Origin: an uncultured Gemmatimonadota bacterium
Lineage (GTDB): Bacteria; SM23-81; DAOVCL01
DNA: 64,000 nt
Direction: 5' to 3'
Assembly: GCA_964626665.1 (NCBI GenBank)
Contig: CAZVGK010000003.1
Location: forward strand, 85,277-149,276
Both the position numbers and the translations under genes were made by a program. The notes under the pieces are model-generated. The model ran no database searches. It was given only the letters and a program-made list of their open reading frames with translations, and was not told where the DNA came from. This document shows positions 3,709 to 63,128 of this stretch, piece by piece (within the stretch, counting starts at the first letter, position 1; the number at the start of each line of letters is the position of its first letter).

Positions 3709-3960
3709 CGTTTTCCTCCTTTTTTGGTTAAGGTTGAAAGCATCAATTCCAATGAGACCTTGGTCAACAACCTCCTTTCCTAACCAAGGGATTTTGCACA
3801 TTGGAACCGTTTGCGCCACAACGAAATCTAGCCCACAATTTTTGTTTTCACCCTCAAGTCCTGCCTCCTTCGGGTCGGATGAATCCGACCCCTACATCTC
3901 AAGCCTTTGTAGGGGTTCGATTTATCAAACCCGGGGAATCTCCTAATCATAGGAATGACG

Positions 3961-6847: not shown

Positions 6848-7092
6848 TACTCACAGGACATTATAGTTTGCCCATGGGCAGCTTTAATTATAATAACCAG
6901 GTCTGTTCCAAAGCGTGAAGGATGGAGCAAGGCGAAACAACTTCACTCCACCAAGACTTCTATTGCACTTTAGTACAGGGTTAGGACCTTTGGCTGAAGC
7001 CCAAAAAAAAAGGTTGATTGCTGTTCTGGCAAAGACATGTAATATGCTTTTCGCTCGCATTAGTAACTCCCCCCACAAAAGTGCTTGTTCCT

Positions 7093-25865: not shown

Positions 25866-26127
25866 TCCTTGTGCAGGGCTCCGCCCTGACAGGGAACCTT
25901 TTTCTCTGACAGGATGACAGGATAAAAAGCAGTTGTCAGTGATCAGGGCCAGGAACTGATCCCCGTCCGCTGAAACCAGTCTCCTCTCCCTTGACGGGGA
26001 AGGGCTAAGGAGAGGGTGAAATAGTTTTCCCCCCTCACCCTAACCCTCTCCCCCCAGAGGAGAGGGAACCGTAAAAGGCAGGAGTCAGTTGTCAGTAGTC
26101 AGTTATCGGGAACAACTCCCAAACCCA

Positions 26128-31158: not shown

Positions 31159-31980
31159 TTACTTTTCCACTCCCAAAATTATTGGGTTAGAATAGTCTAT
31201 TTCAATAGCTAAGCTTCGTAAGTATTCAATTAGCATACCTCGCTTACCTTCAGATCTTAGCCTGTCTTTAAAACTTTGATCGCTATGTCCTAAGATGATT
31301 TCTAAATAATCAATTAGAGTGGCATAGAAAACCAAAAAAGCAATATCATATTGTGATCTGTCCGCTTTCTTGAGAGAATAATATATATGCTCTGGAGACT
31401 TTCGTAGTAGTCTACTGCTTGAACCACTTTCAATTCCGAAGATAATGCTAAATTGCTTATTTCCGATACAATGGATGCCATCTAAGGCATATCCATTCTT
31501 TTCTGGTGGACATTGACGGATATACTTTTGCACAGTTTTTTCCAAAACTGAGCCGAAACAAAATAAATCACATTTACAAAGATTAGCTGGAGGAGAACTC
31601 GATGTATTGCCCACCATTTCTTTTATAGTTTTCATGCTATCGAGTGTCGAAAAAAATTCCTTTTTATTGAGCTTAGTTTTGACTTCAATTGCATATATTG
31701 CTGATTCTGGCCTAACAACAACAATGTCACCAAATTGAAACAGAGGAGCATAGCGAGATGCCTCATGAATGAGAATATCTATTTGAGGACTGACTGTATT
31801 TTTGTCAACATAAACAAACCCAGACGATACTGCGAAATGAGTAGGAACATAGTCTCTTAGAAAGTTACTAAGAAGCCTTTCTGCCCAAAGTCCTTTCGTG
31901 CCAGGATGTGTGATGAAGCTTTTAATCTGGTTTAACTGACTATTGAAGCTTTTGTCTACTTCTGCAAAATAGTCTTTCAT
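31159..31980 (-). CDS. NERD/Mrr-like PD-(D/E)xK nuclease-fold protein
   Basis: GTKGLWAERLLSNFLRDYVP...VSPQIDILIHE...AIYAIEVKTKL follows the NERD pattern (G..GE....L...y.v...eIDhvvi...gifviEvK), i.e. a D...E.K catalytic-core arrangement. Low GC. Confidence 0.5.
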   Translation of the reverse strand: MKDYFAEVDKSFNSQLNQIKSFITHPGTKGLWAERLLSNFLRDYVPTHFAVSSGFVYVDKNTVSPQIDILIHEASRYAPLFQFGDIVVVRPESAIYAIEVKTKLNKKEFFSTLDSMKTIKEMVGNTSSSPPANLCKCDLFCFGSVLEKTVQKYIRQCPPEKNGYALDGIHCIGNKQFSIIFGIESGSSSRLLRKSPEHIYYSLKKADRSQYDIAFLVFYATLIDYLEIILGHSDQSFKDRLRSEGKRGMLIEYLRSLAIEIDYSNPIILGVEK

Positions 31981-32307
31981 CTCTTACTTGTGTTAATGTT
32001 TGATGCCATAGCGCTGGTAGACAGATAGTGCTATTGCTTGAGAACTTACCAGATAACAAAATATACTGTAAGACCCGCTCCAATTACACACTACTTCTCT
32101 TCTCGGTATGGCTTTTGAGCGGGCGATATGGGGTCATATCTTTATTCTTGACTTTCCAAATTCTAATTACCAACTTAATTCCCTTTGTCAGTTGCCGGGT
32201 AATGCCTTTTAAACAGGGCTTTAGCCCTGTCCCTGCAATTCATTGACTATGTGAAGAGATCTCCTGACCTCGACTTCCATCGGCATCGGAAGATGCCTCC
32301 TACACTC

Positions 32308-32449
32308 TTCTACCCGGCTTTAGCCGGGGTTGAGAGGGCTTTAGCCCGTTTGGAGTGCTGTGATTCCTGTCACAGCTTCCGTCAGCAGGAGTTGACGCAC
32401 TCCATAGAGGGCCTAAAGACCCTTAACCCGCACTGAAGTGCGGTAGAAG
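32308..32449. mobile_element. REPIN/MITE-like element, copy 1
   Basis: Terminal hairpin modules ttctacc-CGGCtttaGCCGG and CGCACTgaAGTGCG-gtagaa (CTAC/GTAG-flanked). Core three-way junction ggagtgc[ctgtga..tcacag][gtcagc..gttgac]gcactcc. Other copies at 34859-34954 (truncated), 49567-49693 (inverted), 59487-59662, 62455-62580 (inverted) and a fragment at 60743-60800. Confidence 0.65.
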
Positions 32450-32903
32450 TCTTCTACTCAAGGAAACCTGAAAAGGTTTGAAAAAAAAGACCTTGCAAAA
32501 TTGTAGGCCAGAGATCAGTTTACAGGGATCGAAGGTCAGGAGAAATCCGTTACACCTATCAACCGACACCTGACGAATGACTGACTACTGATCCCTGACC
32601 CCTGTGAACCGTTAGCTTAATTCAAAAATACCATGAAAAAAGGCCCTGTCAAGGGGAAACTTCCCCCCTGCTACAGGGTCTTTCTGTGTTGTCAGGGCTT
32701 TGCCCTGACAGAGGAAGTCTTCTCGTGGATGATAACATCCACAAAGAGCACTGGGGTTGTTTTTCGACAGGATAACAGGATTTACAGGATTTTAGTTTTA
32801 TCCCGATCATTCTGTCAATCCCGTCTAATAAAAGGGAATTCTCCCTGCTTCTCAGTGCCGTCATGGCAGGACTCCTGAGGGATGGAAAATAGAAATTCCT
32901 GAG

Positions 32904-32927
32904 CCGTCAGATGCCCTCATCTGACGG
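32904..32927. repeat. Palindromic hairpin family cggtcagatgccctcatctgacgg
   Basis: Copies at 32904-32927, 54109-54133, 59749-59768 (truncated) and variant 59785-59809. The 54040-54135 and 59695-59770 copies share a longer ~90-nt context. Confidence 0.7.
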
Positions 32928-33123
32928 GGTTTTAGTAGCAGGAGAGGGATTTTGCCACCCCATGTTAGCGGCACATTTGAATTGGGGGACCTGTCTGCGT
33001 GCCTGCCTGAGCGAGAACGCTCGCAGTCAGGCCTGCCTGTACCAGTCTGCCTGTGCGTCGCACGCAGACAGGCACGGCAGACAGACACCGCACAAGCAGG
33101 GAGGTCTCCAGACCTTTCAAGAG

Positions 33124-33147
33124 CTGTCAGGAGGTAACTCCTGACAG
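33124..33147. repeat. Palindromic hairpin family gtcaggaggtaactcctgac
   Basis: Copies at 18610-18637 (imperfect), 18685-18708, 33124-33147 and 41463-41486. Confidence 0.7.
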
Positions 33148-33185
33148 CACGCTTTTAGTGCCCTTCCCTGACGGCGAGAGGGGAG

Positions 33186-33210
33186 GGTGGCAGAATCGGG
33201 GTTCTGCCAC
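33186..33210. repeat. Palindromic hairpin family ggtggcagaatcggggttctgccacc
   Basis: Copies at 33186-33210, 34815-34840, 54175-54204; variants ccgtcagaaccccgattctgacgg at 56203-56230 and 62785-62808. Confidence 0.7.
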
Positions 33211-33270
33211 ATCGGGCTTAATTTATCCTGTCAATCCAGTAAATCCTGTCCGAAAAGCAGTTGTCAGTAG

Positions 33271-34584: not shown

Positions 34585-35077
34585 AATTATCTCAAATTAC
34601 CACGGAATTTCACGGAGAAAAGCAATTATGAATTGAGAATGAAGAATGAAGAATGAAGCTTATGCTGTTATTCCTGATCCCCGTAGTTTGATCCCTAACC
34701 TCTGTTTTTTCGTGGTAATCCGTGGTGATCAGTGGTAAAATATCAGCTACAGATTACACGGAAAAATGCAATTAAGAATTGAGAATTAAGAATGAGGCTT
34801 ATGCTGATCAGCGAGGTGGCAGAATCCCGATTCTGCCACCCTCCCATTGTTTTCTGATTTTCTACCCGGTTTTAGCCGGGGGTTCTTAGGGCTTAAGCCC
34901 TTTCAACGCACTTGGATAGAAAGGCCCCAACCCTGCACTAAAGTGCGGTAGAAACCTTCCACCCAGCTTTAGCTGAGCTATCAAATCCTCGATCTGACAG
35001 CAGATATCCTGATCCCTGTAAACTGTTACCTCTATTTTGACATTCATCCTGTCAATCCAGTTAATCCTGTCTAATAA

Positions 35078-49341: not shown

Positions 49342-50237
49342 CTCTCCTCCCTCTAAATTTCCGATTTTATCCTTTTTGAGCAAGACATATGAGAAGTTTT
49401 CCCTCCCCACCCCATCTCTCGACTGGCCTATAATAAGAAATGTTCATTAACCTGTCAAGCTTTCTTGGATGAATAGTTACTACTGAGACCACTAATCAGA
49501 TTACCCATCATTGCGAGGCTTGCACTGAGCTGCAGCGAGGCGGCAAGCCAAAGCAATCTCCAGCAACTACCGCACTTTAGTGGGGGGGGATATTATGGAG
49601 TGCGTCAACTTCCGTTGACGCATGCTGTGACAGGGCCACAGCACTCCAAAGGGGCTAAAGCCCTCTTAACCCCCGGCTAAAGCCGGGTAGAAGTTGTGGG
49701 AGGCATCTCCCAATGCTGATGCAAGCCAAGGCCAGGAGACCCCTCCCACCCAACCAATGACCCTCCTCGCAATGACCAATGAAATACCAATATGCAGACT
49801 ACAATGTGACCCGAGTAATAATTATCCTTCATTTTTCTGGGATCCCGCTTCTTAAACAATCCCTTCGCTCAGCTTCGGCATTAAACGCTTGACTTTAACC
49901 AAAGATGGGGCTAACTTTCAGTTAGGGGATTACTTGAATTTCCAGATGAACCAAGTATAGGGGAAGAGTAAATTGCTTCAGGAAAAGAACCTTTCTCCCC
50001 TAAGCCATAAACCACAGAGGTCAGAGATCAGTTTACGGGAATCAGGGATCAGCCGTCAGCGGTCAGCAATTCGTCAGTTATCGGTTATCAGTTGTTAGGG
50101 GTTCCCCCCTGATCCCTGCTTCTTCATTCCTGTAAACTGACCCCTGGCTGCTGCAAACTGACCTCTTTGCCTAAAGTGACGCTCACCTCTTTTTAAACCT
50201 TTTGCCCAATATGGTTTCCTAATCTTAAGGAGGGAAG

Positions 50238-53962: not shown

Positions 53963-54325
53963 CAGGATGAACAGGATTTACATGGTTTTTTTTATCCTGA
54001 CAATCCCATATATCCTGTCTAAAAAAGGAATTTTTTCTGCTATGAAGTTTAATTCGGATTATTTATTCATAAGTTTCTGCTCAGATCCTCCGAGCCACCA
54101 ATGATTGAGCGGTCAGATGCCCTCATCTGACCGTTATCGGCCAGCCATCAAGTTCCTTTACTTAACGGCACGGGGGTGGGTGGCAGAATCGGGGTTCTGC
54201 CACCTTGGCTTTGGGATGAACTGTTCGGGATAGACAGGTCCTTGTAAATAATTAAGTTTAAAACCGTTTCGGGTTTATAACCCGCAAGAATGCAACTAAA
54301 CCTTTAAAACCTAGGAGGTGATCCA

Positions 54326-59454: not shown

Positions 59455-59486
59455 CACCCAGCAAATAATCCAATACAAAAACCACT

Positions 59487-59662
59487 TCTACCCGGCTTCA
59501 GCTAAGGGTTCTCATTTTTTTACCGGGTTTTAGTCGAGGGTCATTGGGGCTTTAGCCCATGTGGAGTGCTGTGACTCCTGTCACAGCATGCGTCAACAGG
59601 AGTTGACGCACTCCATATACTGGCCTGAAGGCCCTCAACCCTACTACTAAAGTGCGGTAGAA
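59487..59662. mobile_element. REPIN/MITE-like element, most complete copy
   Basis: ttctacccggcttcagc....ggagtgctgtgactcctgtcacagcatgcgtcaacaggagttgacgcactcc....ctactaaagtgcggtagaa. Same family as 32308-32449. Confidence 0.65.
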
Positions 59663-60550: not shown

Positions 60551-61066
60551 GTAACATAGAGGCACCCTTAGCAGTAACAATTCACCACGGAATTACCTGG
60601 CGCGGCAAAGCCGCAACCAAACAAGGGCCACAGATTACACGGATTTCACTGACAGAAAAAACTACTATCGGAGGTCGTCGCTGATCACCTACTGCGGGTA
60701 GGGGCTTGATTTATCAAGCCCGTTCGGGTCGCATAAATGCGACCCCTACACTTCTACCCGGCTTTAGCCCTATCTTTTCAACCTACGGGCCTGAAGGCCC
60801 AGGGATAACCAGCATAAACTTCATTTTTAATTCTCAATTCTTGCAAAGGGAGGAGATATTCGGAAAGATTTTTCTCTAATCTGTGGAAATCTTTGCATAT
60901 CTGCGGTTTATATGTGTATTGTAATTCTTATCTCTTTTCCCGTGTAATTCCGTGAATTTCCGTGGTAAATTATCCATTCGTGTAGATTCGTCTATTCGTG
61001 TCATTCGTGTTCTATCAGTGAAATCTGTGGAATTCCGTGGTAAACCAGAAGCCTCGCTAAGCTGAT

Positions 61067-62265: not shown

Positions 62266-63128
62266 ATCCCAAATTATGCGATAGGGTGATCGTCACAAGA
62301 TATTCAAAATGAAGAGCTCACAAAAATTAAGTTTAAACTCCTCTATCGTCTGAAAGATGAAAGTTTATACTCTGGAAGATACTTATTTAATCTGTACTAC
62401 GATCTTGCAAGAACTTGTTTTTTGGACAAAGTTAAAGCCCATTGAGCACAAAATTTCTACCGCACTTTAGTACAGTTTGCTATGGAGTGCGTCAACTCCT
62501 GTTGACGTATGCTGTGACACGGTCACAGCACTCCAAACGGGTTAAACCCCTATCAACCCTCAGCTAAAGCCGGGTAGAAGAAGTCCTGAACGTTGAGTAG
62601 TTTTTTTGGTCTGTGTAATCCGTGTAATCTGTGGCTCTTGTCTGGTTGCGGCTTTGCCGCGCTATGAAAATCTACACTACAATTTTGCAAGATCTTGTTT
62701 TTTTAACAAAGTTTTCCTTAGCAACCGCAAAGCTACTAAGATCGCAGAGGAGATAAAAAGCAAAAGAGAGATGAAATCTACCGAGCCGTCAGAACCCCAA
62801 TTCTGAGGGTAATCTCTATTTTCTTTCGGGGTTACTCCGTGTTTATCCGTGGTGAATCTTTTTCTTTAAACTTTGCGTCCTTTGCGACTTTGCGGTGAAT
62901 TATTTGGTTGCGGCTTCGCCGCACTGGGTTCATCTGTGGTTATAGCATATTTTGGGTTTATATATCGTTCTCCCCTGGCGAGGAGAAACGAGGACAAAGA
63001 AAATGGAAAGGAGGTGATGCAACAAACAGAATCGCCAGAACCTTTATCCCAAAAGGGGGGTGATAACATATGTTGGTGGACTGTTGCTCGTGAACTATTC
63101 ATAAATTTCAATTTGAAGGAGAAAGAAA

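Follow-up and report, generated by a model that had tools for sequence, protein, structure and literature searches.

What is the palindromic repeat at 59487-59662 of this 64,000-nucleotide stretch of contig CAZVGK010000003.1 (the window), and what has scattered its relatives along the same DNA? An earlier note, made from the letters alone, had proposed a family combining features of REPINs (doublets of repetitive extragenic palindromic, or REP, sequences that form hairpins) and of miniature inverted-repeat transposable elements (MITEs), with ends carrying the tetranucleotide recognised by REP-associated tyrosine transposases (RAYTs). The repeat family is real, and of this we have hardly any doubt; we call it F1, a family of CTAC-tagged modular palindromic repeats. 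With a probability of about 0.55, we favor the reading that F1 is a non-autonomous, non-coding REP/REPIN element, resembling the bacterial interspersed mosaic elements (BIMEs), that is moved in trans by a RAYT-type Y1 transposase of the HUH (histidine-hydrophobic residue-histidine) class; the link to a RAYT is one that we infer.

The consensus of a full F1 element begins with TTCTACC, followed by hairpin A (hpA, CCGGC TTTA GCCGG), a GGGTT.. segment and hairpin B (hpB, GGGC TTTA GCCC). The core reads GGAGT(GCTGTGAC tcct GTCACAGC)at(GCGTCAAC agga GTTGACGC)ACTCC, with GGAGTGCTGTGAC...GTCACAGC as its core strings, and the right half consists of hpB' (GGCC TRAA GGCC), an ..AACCC segment, hpA' (GCAC TRAA GTGC) and GGTAGAA. 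When the six places listed in the earlier note were read and aligned, its positions held to within 1-2 nt, and the terminal hairpins adjoining ttctacc and ggtagaa in inverted orientation and the ggagtgc...gcactcc core were seen in the aligned copies. The fragment that it placed at 60743-60800 is genuine, with its true start at 60752; a start at 60743 takes in the CCCCTACAC tail of an adjacent, different repeat. A profile search added an orphan unit and a truncated copy. The window holds four full copies, one core-less copy and three fragments, at eight loci with mutually unrelated flanks, and about 13 occurrences of the 25-nt unit that forms the ends. They are the following, in window coordinates:

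59486-59662, + strand: full element, the copy named by the earlier note, from sequence reading, alignment and profile search
59486-59509, + strand: left unit of this copy
59518-59541, + strand: tandem duplicate of the left unit
59547-59558, + strand: hpB, GGGC-TTTA-GCCC
59563-59614, + strand: core (GGAGTGC, hpC, hpD, GCACTCC)
59622-59633, + strand: hpB', GGCC-TGAA-GGCC
59637-59662, + strand: right unit
32308-32448, + strand: full element, core at 32352-32403
49565-49692, - strand: full element in reverse orientation, core at 49597-49647, hpB' deleted, GCAC-type end degenerate (AACTACC)
62455-62579, - strand: full element in reverse orientation, core at 62484-62534, hpB' deleted
34860-34953, + strand: element lacking most of the core, of which a degenerate remnant caacgcacttggatag remains
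34957-34978, + strand: orphan left unit, slightly degenerate (TTCCACCCAGCTTTAGCTGAGC), directly 3' of the 34860-34953 element
60752-60800, + strand: fragment of a left unit and an hpB'-like hairpin GGGCCTGAAGGCCC, abutting a REP pair of another family (F2, below)
6958-6993, - strand: truncated copy, GCAC-type end unit TTCTATTGCACTTTAGTACAGG and part of a B-type hairpin

The extra length of the 59486 copy is due solely to the tandem duplication of its left unit. The window has a G+C content of 46.9%. The end string GTGCGGTAGAA has five matches against 0.39 expected, and TTCTACCCGG nine against 3.7. The copies lie in divergent promoter regions and after genes, in both orientations relative to transcription and without a T-tract. 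Because their similarity stops exactly at TTCTACC and GGTAGAA, and because all of them are intergenic, they are not pieces of a single duplicated region, as the earlier note had allowed that they might be.

The earlier note had also described the two inner hairpins of the core as occurring in either order, and had suggested inversion or recombination within the element. This part of the description falls, since the copies at 49565 and 62455 are reverse complements of the whole element, and orientation by the ends (CGGC on the left, GCAC on the right) makes all copies collinear; internal inversion or recombination of the core is therefore rejected. The order hpA-hpB-GGAGTGC-hpC(TGTGAC)-hpD(GTCAAC)-GCACTCC-hpB'-hpA' is found in 12 of 12 full copies from the window and other contigs. 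The appearance of either order arises from a pseudo-dyad, in which the right half repeats the flanks and loops of the left half as their reverse complement, while the two members of each hairpin pair (A/A', B/B' and C/D) differ in stem sequence. An F1 element matches its own profile on the opposite strand with an E value of 1e-10.

The boundaries of an element are two inverted copies of the 25-nt unit, cTTCTAC-C-(4-5 bp stem)-TTYA-(stem)-R-GGGT, which in sequence form is 5'-CTTCTACCCGGCTTTAGCCGGGGTT, with a GCAC variant as well; the left-end pattern is TTCTACCCGRCTTTAG. About 0.95 Mb of fetched loci contain 259 non-redundant, well-paired units, and their commonest stems are GCAC/GTGC (96 units), CGGC/GCCG (51), CGAC/GTCG (34), GGGC/GCCC (30) and CAGC/GCTG (18); all of the five or more stem variants are complementary. 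The two units of an element form a heterodimer with different stems; in the window copies the left stem is of the CGGC type and the right stem of the GCAC type. Inverted pairing is seen in 134 left-right end pairs at a spacing of 51-249 bp (three longer pairs are considered below). In an alignment of 86 distinct units chosen for an intact TTCTAC, both partners vary in three of the four stem pairs, and double-change cells number 91 against 33 +/- 5.5 after shuffling, with none of 500 shuffles reaching 91; the covariation collapses in control pairings that are shifted along the stem. A fifth pair, C:R, is C:G in one third of the units and C.A in the remainder, which is a T.G wobble on the hairpin-GGTAGAA strand. 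This covariation supports local terminal hairpins that are probably maintained by selection. On the strand of the TTYA loop, the TTCTAC tag is invariant in the 86 units, which were selected for it, and is conserved at 83-93% per position in 492 unselected matches. The GT of the GGGT that lies 3' of the hairpin is also conserved (209/256 and 229/256).

Between these ends the element is variable. Complete elements range from 51 to 249 bp with constant ends and an interior of small hairpins in inverted pairs whose members agree in loop and differ in stem (B/B' and, within the core, C/D). Elements of 51 bp have nothing between GGGTT and AACCC, those of 70-104 bp contain one or two extra hairpins, those of 119-146 bp contain the GGAGTGC core, and those of up to 249 bp contain other repeat modules. 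Most family members are without the core. Where it is present, it has two inner hairpins, one (L036, L200; L numbers denote loci outside the window) or a broken second hairpin (L158, L160, L127, L135).

The window locus is matched at 100% identity by contigs L001-L003 of Joint Genome Institute (JGI) metagenomes, and an exact 23-mer retrieved 111 stretches from JGI metagenomes. A 15-mer scan of one genome per species was unspecific, mostly chance among the 98 stretches listed, and only genomes with several matches were used. Among the matches listed, the metagenome-assembled genomes (MAGs) with several comprise Zixibacteria (9 loci), two unclassified, two WOR-3 and one Omnitrophica, phylum labels that rest on MAG binning. 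The earlier note had staked its reading of a dispersed, non-coding, REP/REPIN-like family with inverted hairpin ends on there being further copies; many exist in metagenome contigs and MAGs, and the reading is strengthened by them. Genes neighboring the F1 locus encode Por_Secre_tail domains, and the closest named homolog of a gltD-like gene, at 74% amino acid identity, is from a candidate division WOR-3 bacterium; in 22 kb of that WOR-3 relative (L223/L224) none of these repeats was found. A phage or plasmid origin is rejected, since neither a 21-mer of the F1 end against IMG/VR viral contigs nor blastn with F1 against PLSDB plasmids gave a match, and so is a cyanobacterial origin, since the window contains no HIP1 site (GCGATCGC).

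Folded as single-stranded DNA, the copy at 32307-32449 has a minimum free energy of -39.2 kcal/mol (z -7.9), with a predicted terminal stem, hpA, hpA' and a three-way junction in the core. Its opposite strand folds similarly (z -6.2), and the 59486-59662 copy has a z of -7.7 as RNA. The 52-nt core alone is predicted to form the junction with an ensemble frequency of 0.61 (z -7.4), so that the three-way junction put forward in the earlier note is confirmed as a prediction rather than as a demonstrated structure. For the 51-nt and 89-nt elements, the best fold is one long imperfect hairpin of left half against right half. Since the TTCTACC/GGTAGAA ends and the GGGTT/AACCC segments can pair mutually, a single strand can fold either as one long imperfect hairpin or as multi-branched local hairpins, among them the three-way-junction core.

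The search for transposases covered the window, L001 and all F1-bearing loci; its queries were the E. coli RAYT and the TnpA proteins of IS200 and IS608, followed by a profile of 120 RAYT homologs. A Y1_Tnp gene in L192 (PF01797, E 9e-12), split by a frameshift in an A-run, is flanked upstream by GTAGC-GGAGACC-TTTA-GGTCTCC and downstream by GGAAAAC-TAAA-GTTTTCC-GCTAC. Its homologs, one of them annotated Zixibacteria, lie between REP pairs of the same kind (L215-L219), which make up family F3: GTAGC-GGAGGTC-TTYA-GACCTCC paired with GGAAARC-TRAA-GYTTTCC-GCTAC, on both sides of the RAYT genes. A second family, F2 (GTAGGGG-N4-ATTTAT-N4-CCC), brackets a RAYT clade at L220 2837-3490, at L221 2782-3255 and at L108 1-470, where a C-terminal Y1_Tnp fragment sits inside F2 arrays. 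The last codons of the L221 RAYT gene (...GSDESDPY) are encoded by the 3' F2 REP itself. Many database calls for the L108-type homologs (P0125-P0155) are only 72-102 amino acids long and start at an internal methionine just before the HUH motif. At L221 2800-3261 and L220 2870-3303 the frame extends upstream as far as the 5' REP, and the additional part codes for the usual N-terminus (RLKDYDY..GYYFVTICT). To judge from these frames, the short calls seem to reflect wrongly assigned starts or gene decay, and not a mini-protein. No F3 unit occurs in the window, and F2 is represented there by two pairs:

60698-60749: F2 pair with tags outside, GTAG-GGGCTTGA-TTTA-TCAAGCCC ... GGGTCGCA-TAAA-TGCGACCC-CTAC, immediately 5' of the F1 fragment 60752-60800
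3872-3932: F2 pair with tags inside; its unit 3872-3895, - strand, GTAGGGGTCGGATTCATCCGACCCG, is identical to the REP overlapping the 3' end of the L221 RAYT gene
L215 2267-2650 and 3116-3260, L217 5790-6000 and 6468-6700, L192 9640-10200: F3 sites outside the window

L221 and the window locus both come from the Ga03155xx-numbered JGI contig series, and they share a GC content of 46%. F1 and F2 occur together in 47 of 130 loci, and at L129 4665-4818 an F1 element contains a complete F2 pair in the space from hpB to hpB', which suggests the insertion of one palindromic element into another. A generic census of hairpins beside any GTAG or CTAC in the window did no better at a 5-bp threshold than shuffled sequence and was not used.

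F1, F2 and F3 have a common layout of tag, 0-1 nt, stem, TTYA loop and stem, and the REPs at the RAYT genes of L192, L215-L219 and L108/L220/L221 share its tag-stem-TTYA-stem order, a match that supports a RAYT context. F2 and F3 also resemble F1 in occurring in the same genomes, adjacent to it or nested. They differ from it in having 5'-GTAG, stems of 7-8 bp and positions that directly flank or overlap Y1_Tnp genes, none of which applies to F1. On the TTYA-loop strand, F1 reads 5'-CTAC-C-stem-TTYA-stem, and by the same criterion F2 and F3 read 5'-GTAG. Canonical REPs are 5'-GTAG-stem-loop-stem on the active strand (PMC8266576, PMC3733652). The GTAG/CTAC tetranucleotide singled out by the earlier note does occur in F1, but with a polarity reversed relative to canonical RAYT substrates.

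The REPIN/BIME-RAYT systems of Pseudomonas, E. coli, Stenotrophomonas ('SMAG') and Marinomonas resemble F1 in consisting of short extragenic hairpins beside a conserved tetranucleotide, in inverted pairs around a structured spacer (PMC8266576; PMC3733652; PMC3116915). Like F1, they form heterodimers of different stems and clusters or tandem arrays, have covarying stems, reach high copy number, are non-coding and make no target duplications. The Marinomonas REP-Mb, with a 5-bp stem and a TTTA loop, is similar to F1 (PMC8266576). F1 is unlike these systems in its (TT)CTAC rather than GTAG tag, in having no adjacent cognate RAYT among those found, and in an unusually modular interior (51-249 bp), where inverted hairpin pairs are nested and a 52-nt double-hairpin core is conserved. 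Its hosts are uncultured bacteria of the WOR-3/Zixibacteria type rather than Proteobacteria. F1 groups functionally with REP, REPIN and BIME, yet lies outside the GTAG REP superfamily; it is not filed there because it lacks the 5'-GTAG and because the F1-bearing contigs sampled gave no RAYT flanked by it.

If the RAYT reading is right, F1 would spread as single-stranded DNA that is cut and re-joined beside the terminal hairpins by a RAYT-type Y1 HUH transposase encoded elsewhere in the genome, whether an enzyme of its own or that of F2, the canonical GTAG family found in the same genomes. The distribution of F1 resembles that of mobile DNA: its ends are constant and its interior varies, one 89-bp copy recurs unchanged beside at least 11 different left flanks, and target-site duplications are absent. 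Because its stems are unlike, each unit would fold locally and no long perfect palindrome would arise. Known REP families include heterodimers whose stems differ, have structured spacers and occur in clusters, and avoidance of long perfect palindromes has been suggested as a rationale (PMC3733652). The REP tag occupies the position of the IS200/IS605 guide, and a change of tag redirects cleavage by the Marinomonas enzyme, which with GTAC cuts at GA/GT (PMC8266576). On this guide model a CTAC tag would select GT, and a candidate, if speculative, cut site is the conserved GT in the GGGT 3' of the hairpin.

Several results count against this reading. GTAG is found in F1 only 3' of the hairpin, on the opposite strand, and there is no conserved 5'-GTAG on the strand that would be recognised. 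Any GTAG mutation abolishes the activity of E. coli TnpA-REP, and GTAG mutations severely reduce cleavage by TnpASm of S. maltophilia (PMC8266576). Homology and profile searches found no RAYT/Y1 transposase in the window or 6.5 kb beyond it, and Pfam found no transposase among ten flanking window genes, as the earlier note had said of the window. About 1 Mb of F1-bearing contigs yielded only two Y1_Tnp remnants, at L192 and L108, flanked by F3 and F2 respectively and not by F1; no RAYT flanked by F1 was found in this sample, and the RAYTs recovered flank F2 or F3. No clean filled/empty pair was found among near-identical contigs or relatives: in an all-versus-all blastn of 133 loci the candidate indels between near-identical contigs are other sequences, and the orthologous loci in relatives (L225, L227, L226, L223/224) have diverged intergenic DNA rather than clean empty sites. 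Tandem arrays with a 50-bp period, at L108 4320-4450, L180 6970-7150 and also in L112, L147 and L171, contain two to three copies of the right-hand modules GGGCTAAAGCCC + CCCTGCACTAAAGTGCGG + TAGAAGTAAACCAT, each array ending in a variant unit GGGCTAAAGCCCTGTAGAA; they show that local duplication also adds to F1 copy number. Finally, the scans of genomes and metagenomes were seeded with the GCAC-type right end, and the counts from them carry an ascertainment bias.

A bolder version of the RAYT reading, which we consider doubtful, is that F1 represents a distinct 'mirror-tag' REP class, with 5'-CTAC replacing 5'-GTAG ahead of a hairpin otherwise of the RAYT type, in which a RAYT with a re-targeted guide-cleavage pairing would cut the GT of GGGT, and in which a modular carrier would spread the 52-nt three-way-junction module among WOR-3, Zixibacteria and Omnitrophica-labelled lineages.

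The alternative that survives best, unlikely as we judge it, is that F1 is a BIME-like mosaic without a transposase of its own, produced by replication slippage, gene conversion and recombination of adjacent palindromes and maintained because it is of use to the host, for example in protein binding, in supercoiling, in stabilising mRNA 3' ends or in termination. Such an origin would suit the tandem arrays of hpB'+hpA' modules, the duplicated left unit of the 59486 copy, the extremely modular interiors and the setting of surrounding intergenic DNA that is itself a mosaic of several other short repeat families, as well as the lack of an F1-flanked transposase in the contigs searched. It is less easily reconciled with one 89-bp F1 sequence that is identical at at least 11 different, unrelated left flanks in groundwater contigs. 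These copies probably indicate recent amplification, and together with the sharp constant ends they need dispersal beyond local slippage. Positions both at promoters and after genes, in either orientation and lacking a T-tract, make a uniform role as terminator or stabiliser unlikely, and near-identical ends in MAGs of different phyla fit an enzyme recognition site.

Somewhat less probable again is that F1 has no dedicated enzyme and would be cross-mobilised by the RAYT of F2 (or F3) through the C-TTYA-G hairpin loops that the families have in common. The loop CTTTAG/CTTCAG, with its complements, is common to F1 and F3 and appears as TTTA in F2; F1 and F2 co-occur and nest, and F2 units are present in the window. 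Some RAYTs still bind mutated tags, and loop bases matter for the Marinomonas enzyme (PMC8266576). Set against this are the stem length of 4-5 bp rather than 7-8 bp, the change of both G positions of the tag, and the 52 of 130 F1-bearing loci that contain no F2, F3 or F4 unit, though these loci are short.

It is very unlikely that F1 is a classical MITE, that is, a DDE-type insertion sequence reduced by deletion and bounded by short terminal inverted repeats (TIRs). The label 'MITE-like' in the earlier note is apt for small, intergenic, high-copy elements with inverted ends, here a 7-bp TIR TTCTACC/GGTAGAA, and fails in the strict sense of TIR, target-site duplication and autonomous parent. 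At none of the five complete window copies is there a direct repeat common to both flanks. Among the 134 end pairs, no length class above 250 bp with a transposase was found; three pairs exceed 350 bp, one without an open reading frame (ORF) of at least 100 amino acids and two spanning 1.7 and 6.2 kb, whose several ORFs were not individually annotated. The profile found no RAYT-family Y1 gene in F1-bearing loci beyond the remnants at L192 and L108, and covarying subterminal hairpins are typical of single-strand HUH substrates. The palindrome-associated elements (PATEs) derived from IS200/IS605 share with F1 the subterminal hairpins, the lack of target duplication and a presumed single-strand HUH chemistry. 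The ends of IS200/IS605 elements are similar hairpins that are direct on one strand, with no TIR, whereas at the ends of F1 a single unit occurs in inverted orientation: on one strand the loops read TTTA at the left and TAAA at the right, and the ends TTCTACC and GGTAGAA are reverse complements. Correia/NEMIS, ERIC and the pneumococcal BOX/RUP elements are, like F1, small, intergenic and modular and fold into long hairpins; they differ in having longer TIRs and usually target duplications or defined target dinucleotides. We know of no sequence similarity between them and F1.

We give just as little credence to F1 being a set of genes for structured non-coding RNAs whose functional part would be the three-way-junction core: the predicted fold is very stable (z about -8) and copies from several organisms have almost the same core amid varying flanking modules, but Rfam 15 gave no match at gathering score and nothing relevant to F1 at E <= 0.5, no covariation was found in the core because it is nearly invariant, hpD is broken in one sub-family and absent in another, most members are without the core, copies lie in both orientations relative to neighboring genes, and both strands fold about equally because of the pseudo-dyad. 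Readings of the four-way and three-way junctions as a tRNA-like structure or a ribozyme were given no weight, in view of the 4-nt loops, the absence of linker residues, the lack of Rfam matches and the folding of short elements into a long hairpin. The sole Rfam match in the window at E <= 0.5, at 25981-26066, is to the eukaryotic miRNA precursor mir-627, with 29 bits against a gathering score of 86, and is taken as chance.

To our knowledge, REP/REPIN-RAYT systems have been studied almost only in Proteobacteria, and they are described as vertically inherited. REP-like repeats would in themselves not surprise a specialist; more notable are the reversal of the tag, the modular construction with its nesting, and an occurrence in several phyla that have been little studied. 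In sediment and groundwater phyla about which little is known, several REP-like families that have one hairpin loop in common occur side by side, and F1 among them retains the RAYT-type hairpin with the complementary tag. If a RAYT acts on F1, the family would be a natural test of the model in which the tag is the guide that sets the cleavage site; if none does, it would represent another way of spreading palindromic modules. Were the reading with a re-targeted guide true, it would amount to natural re-programming of the guide in domesticated HUH transposases and to REPINs that move horizontally with cargo. In practical terms, F1-type repeats fill and reshuffle the intergenic DNA of these MAGs, and they will break assemblies and confuse gene calling, an example being the calls of 72-102 amino acids for the RAYT clade flanked by F2.

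Other repeats and genes of the window may be recorded here. A hairpin with a 10-bp stem, GGTGGCAGAA-N6-TTCTGCCACC, occurs at 33186-33211, 34815-34840 and 54179-54204 and also in 34 of 130 F1-bearing loci, sometimes inside F1 elements (L071, L125, L144, L184, L189). The long intergenic region at 32675-33270, downstream of the gltD-like gene, is a mosaic of short repeat modules (e.g., CGTCAGATGAGGGCATCTGACGG) that are also present in many F1-bearing contigs; its identity with the syntenic region of L225 is 83%. The motif TTCCGTGGTAA, often within ..CCGTGAAATTCCGTGGTAAAT.., occurs eight times against 0.78 expected (25716, 34597, 34708, 39642, 43112, 60582, 60958 and 61033), mostly on the coding strand within about 100 bp upstream of gene starts. 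Upstream of gltD it is also conserved in L225 and L227, and a promoter or regulatory function is conceivable. A large ORF at 20-2374 encodes, according to Pfam, a novel STAND NTPase domain, TPR repeats and a C-terminal cold-shock domain. It and the gene for a DUF6602 protein at 31159-31980 may be defence-type genes.

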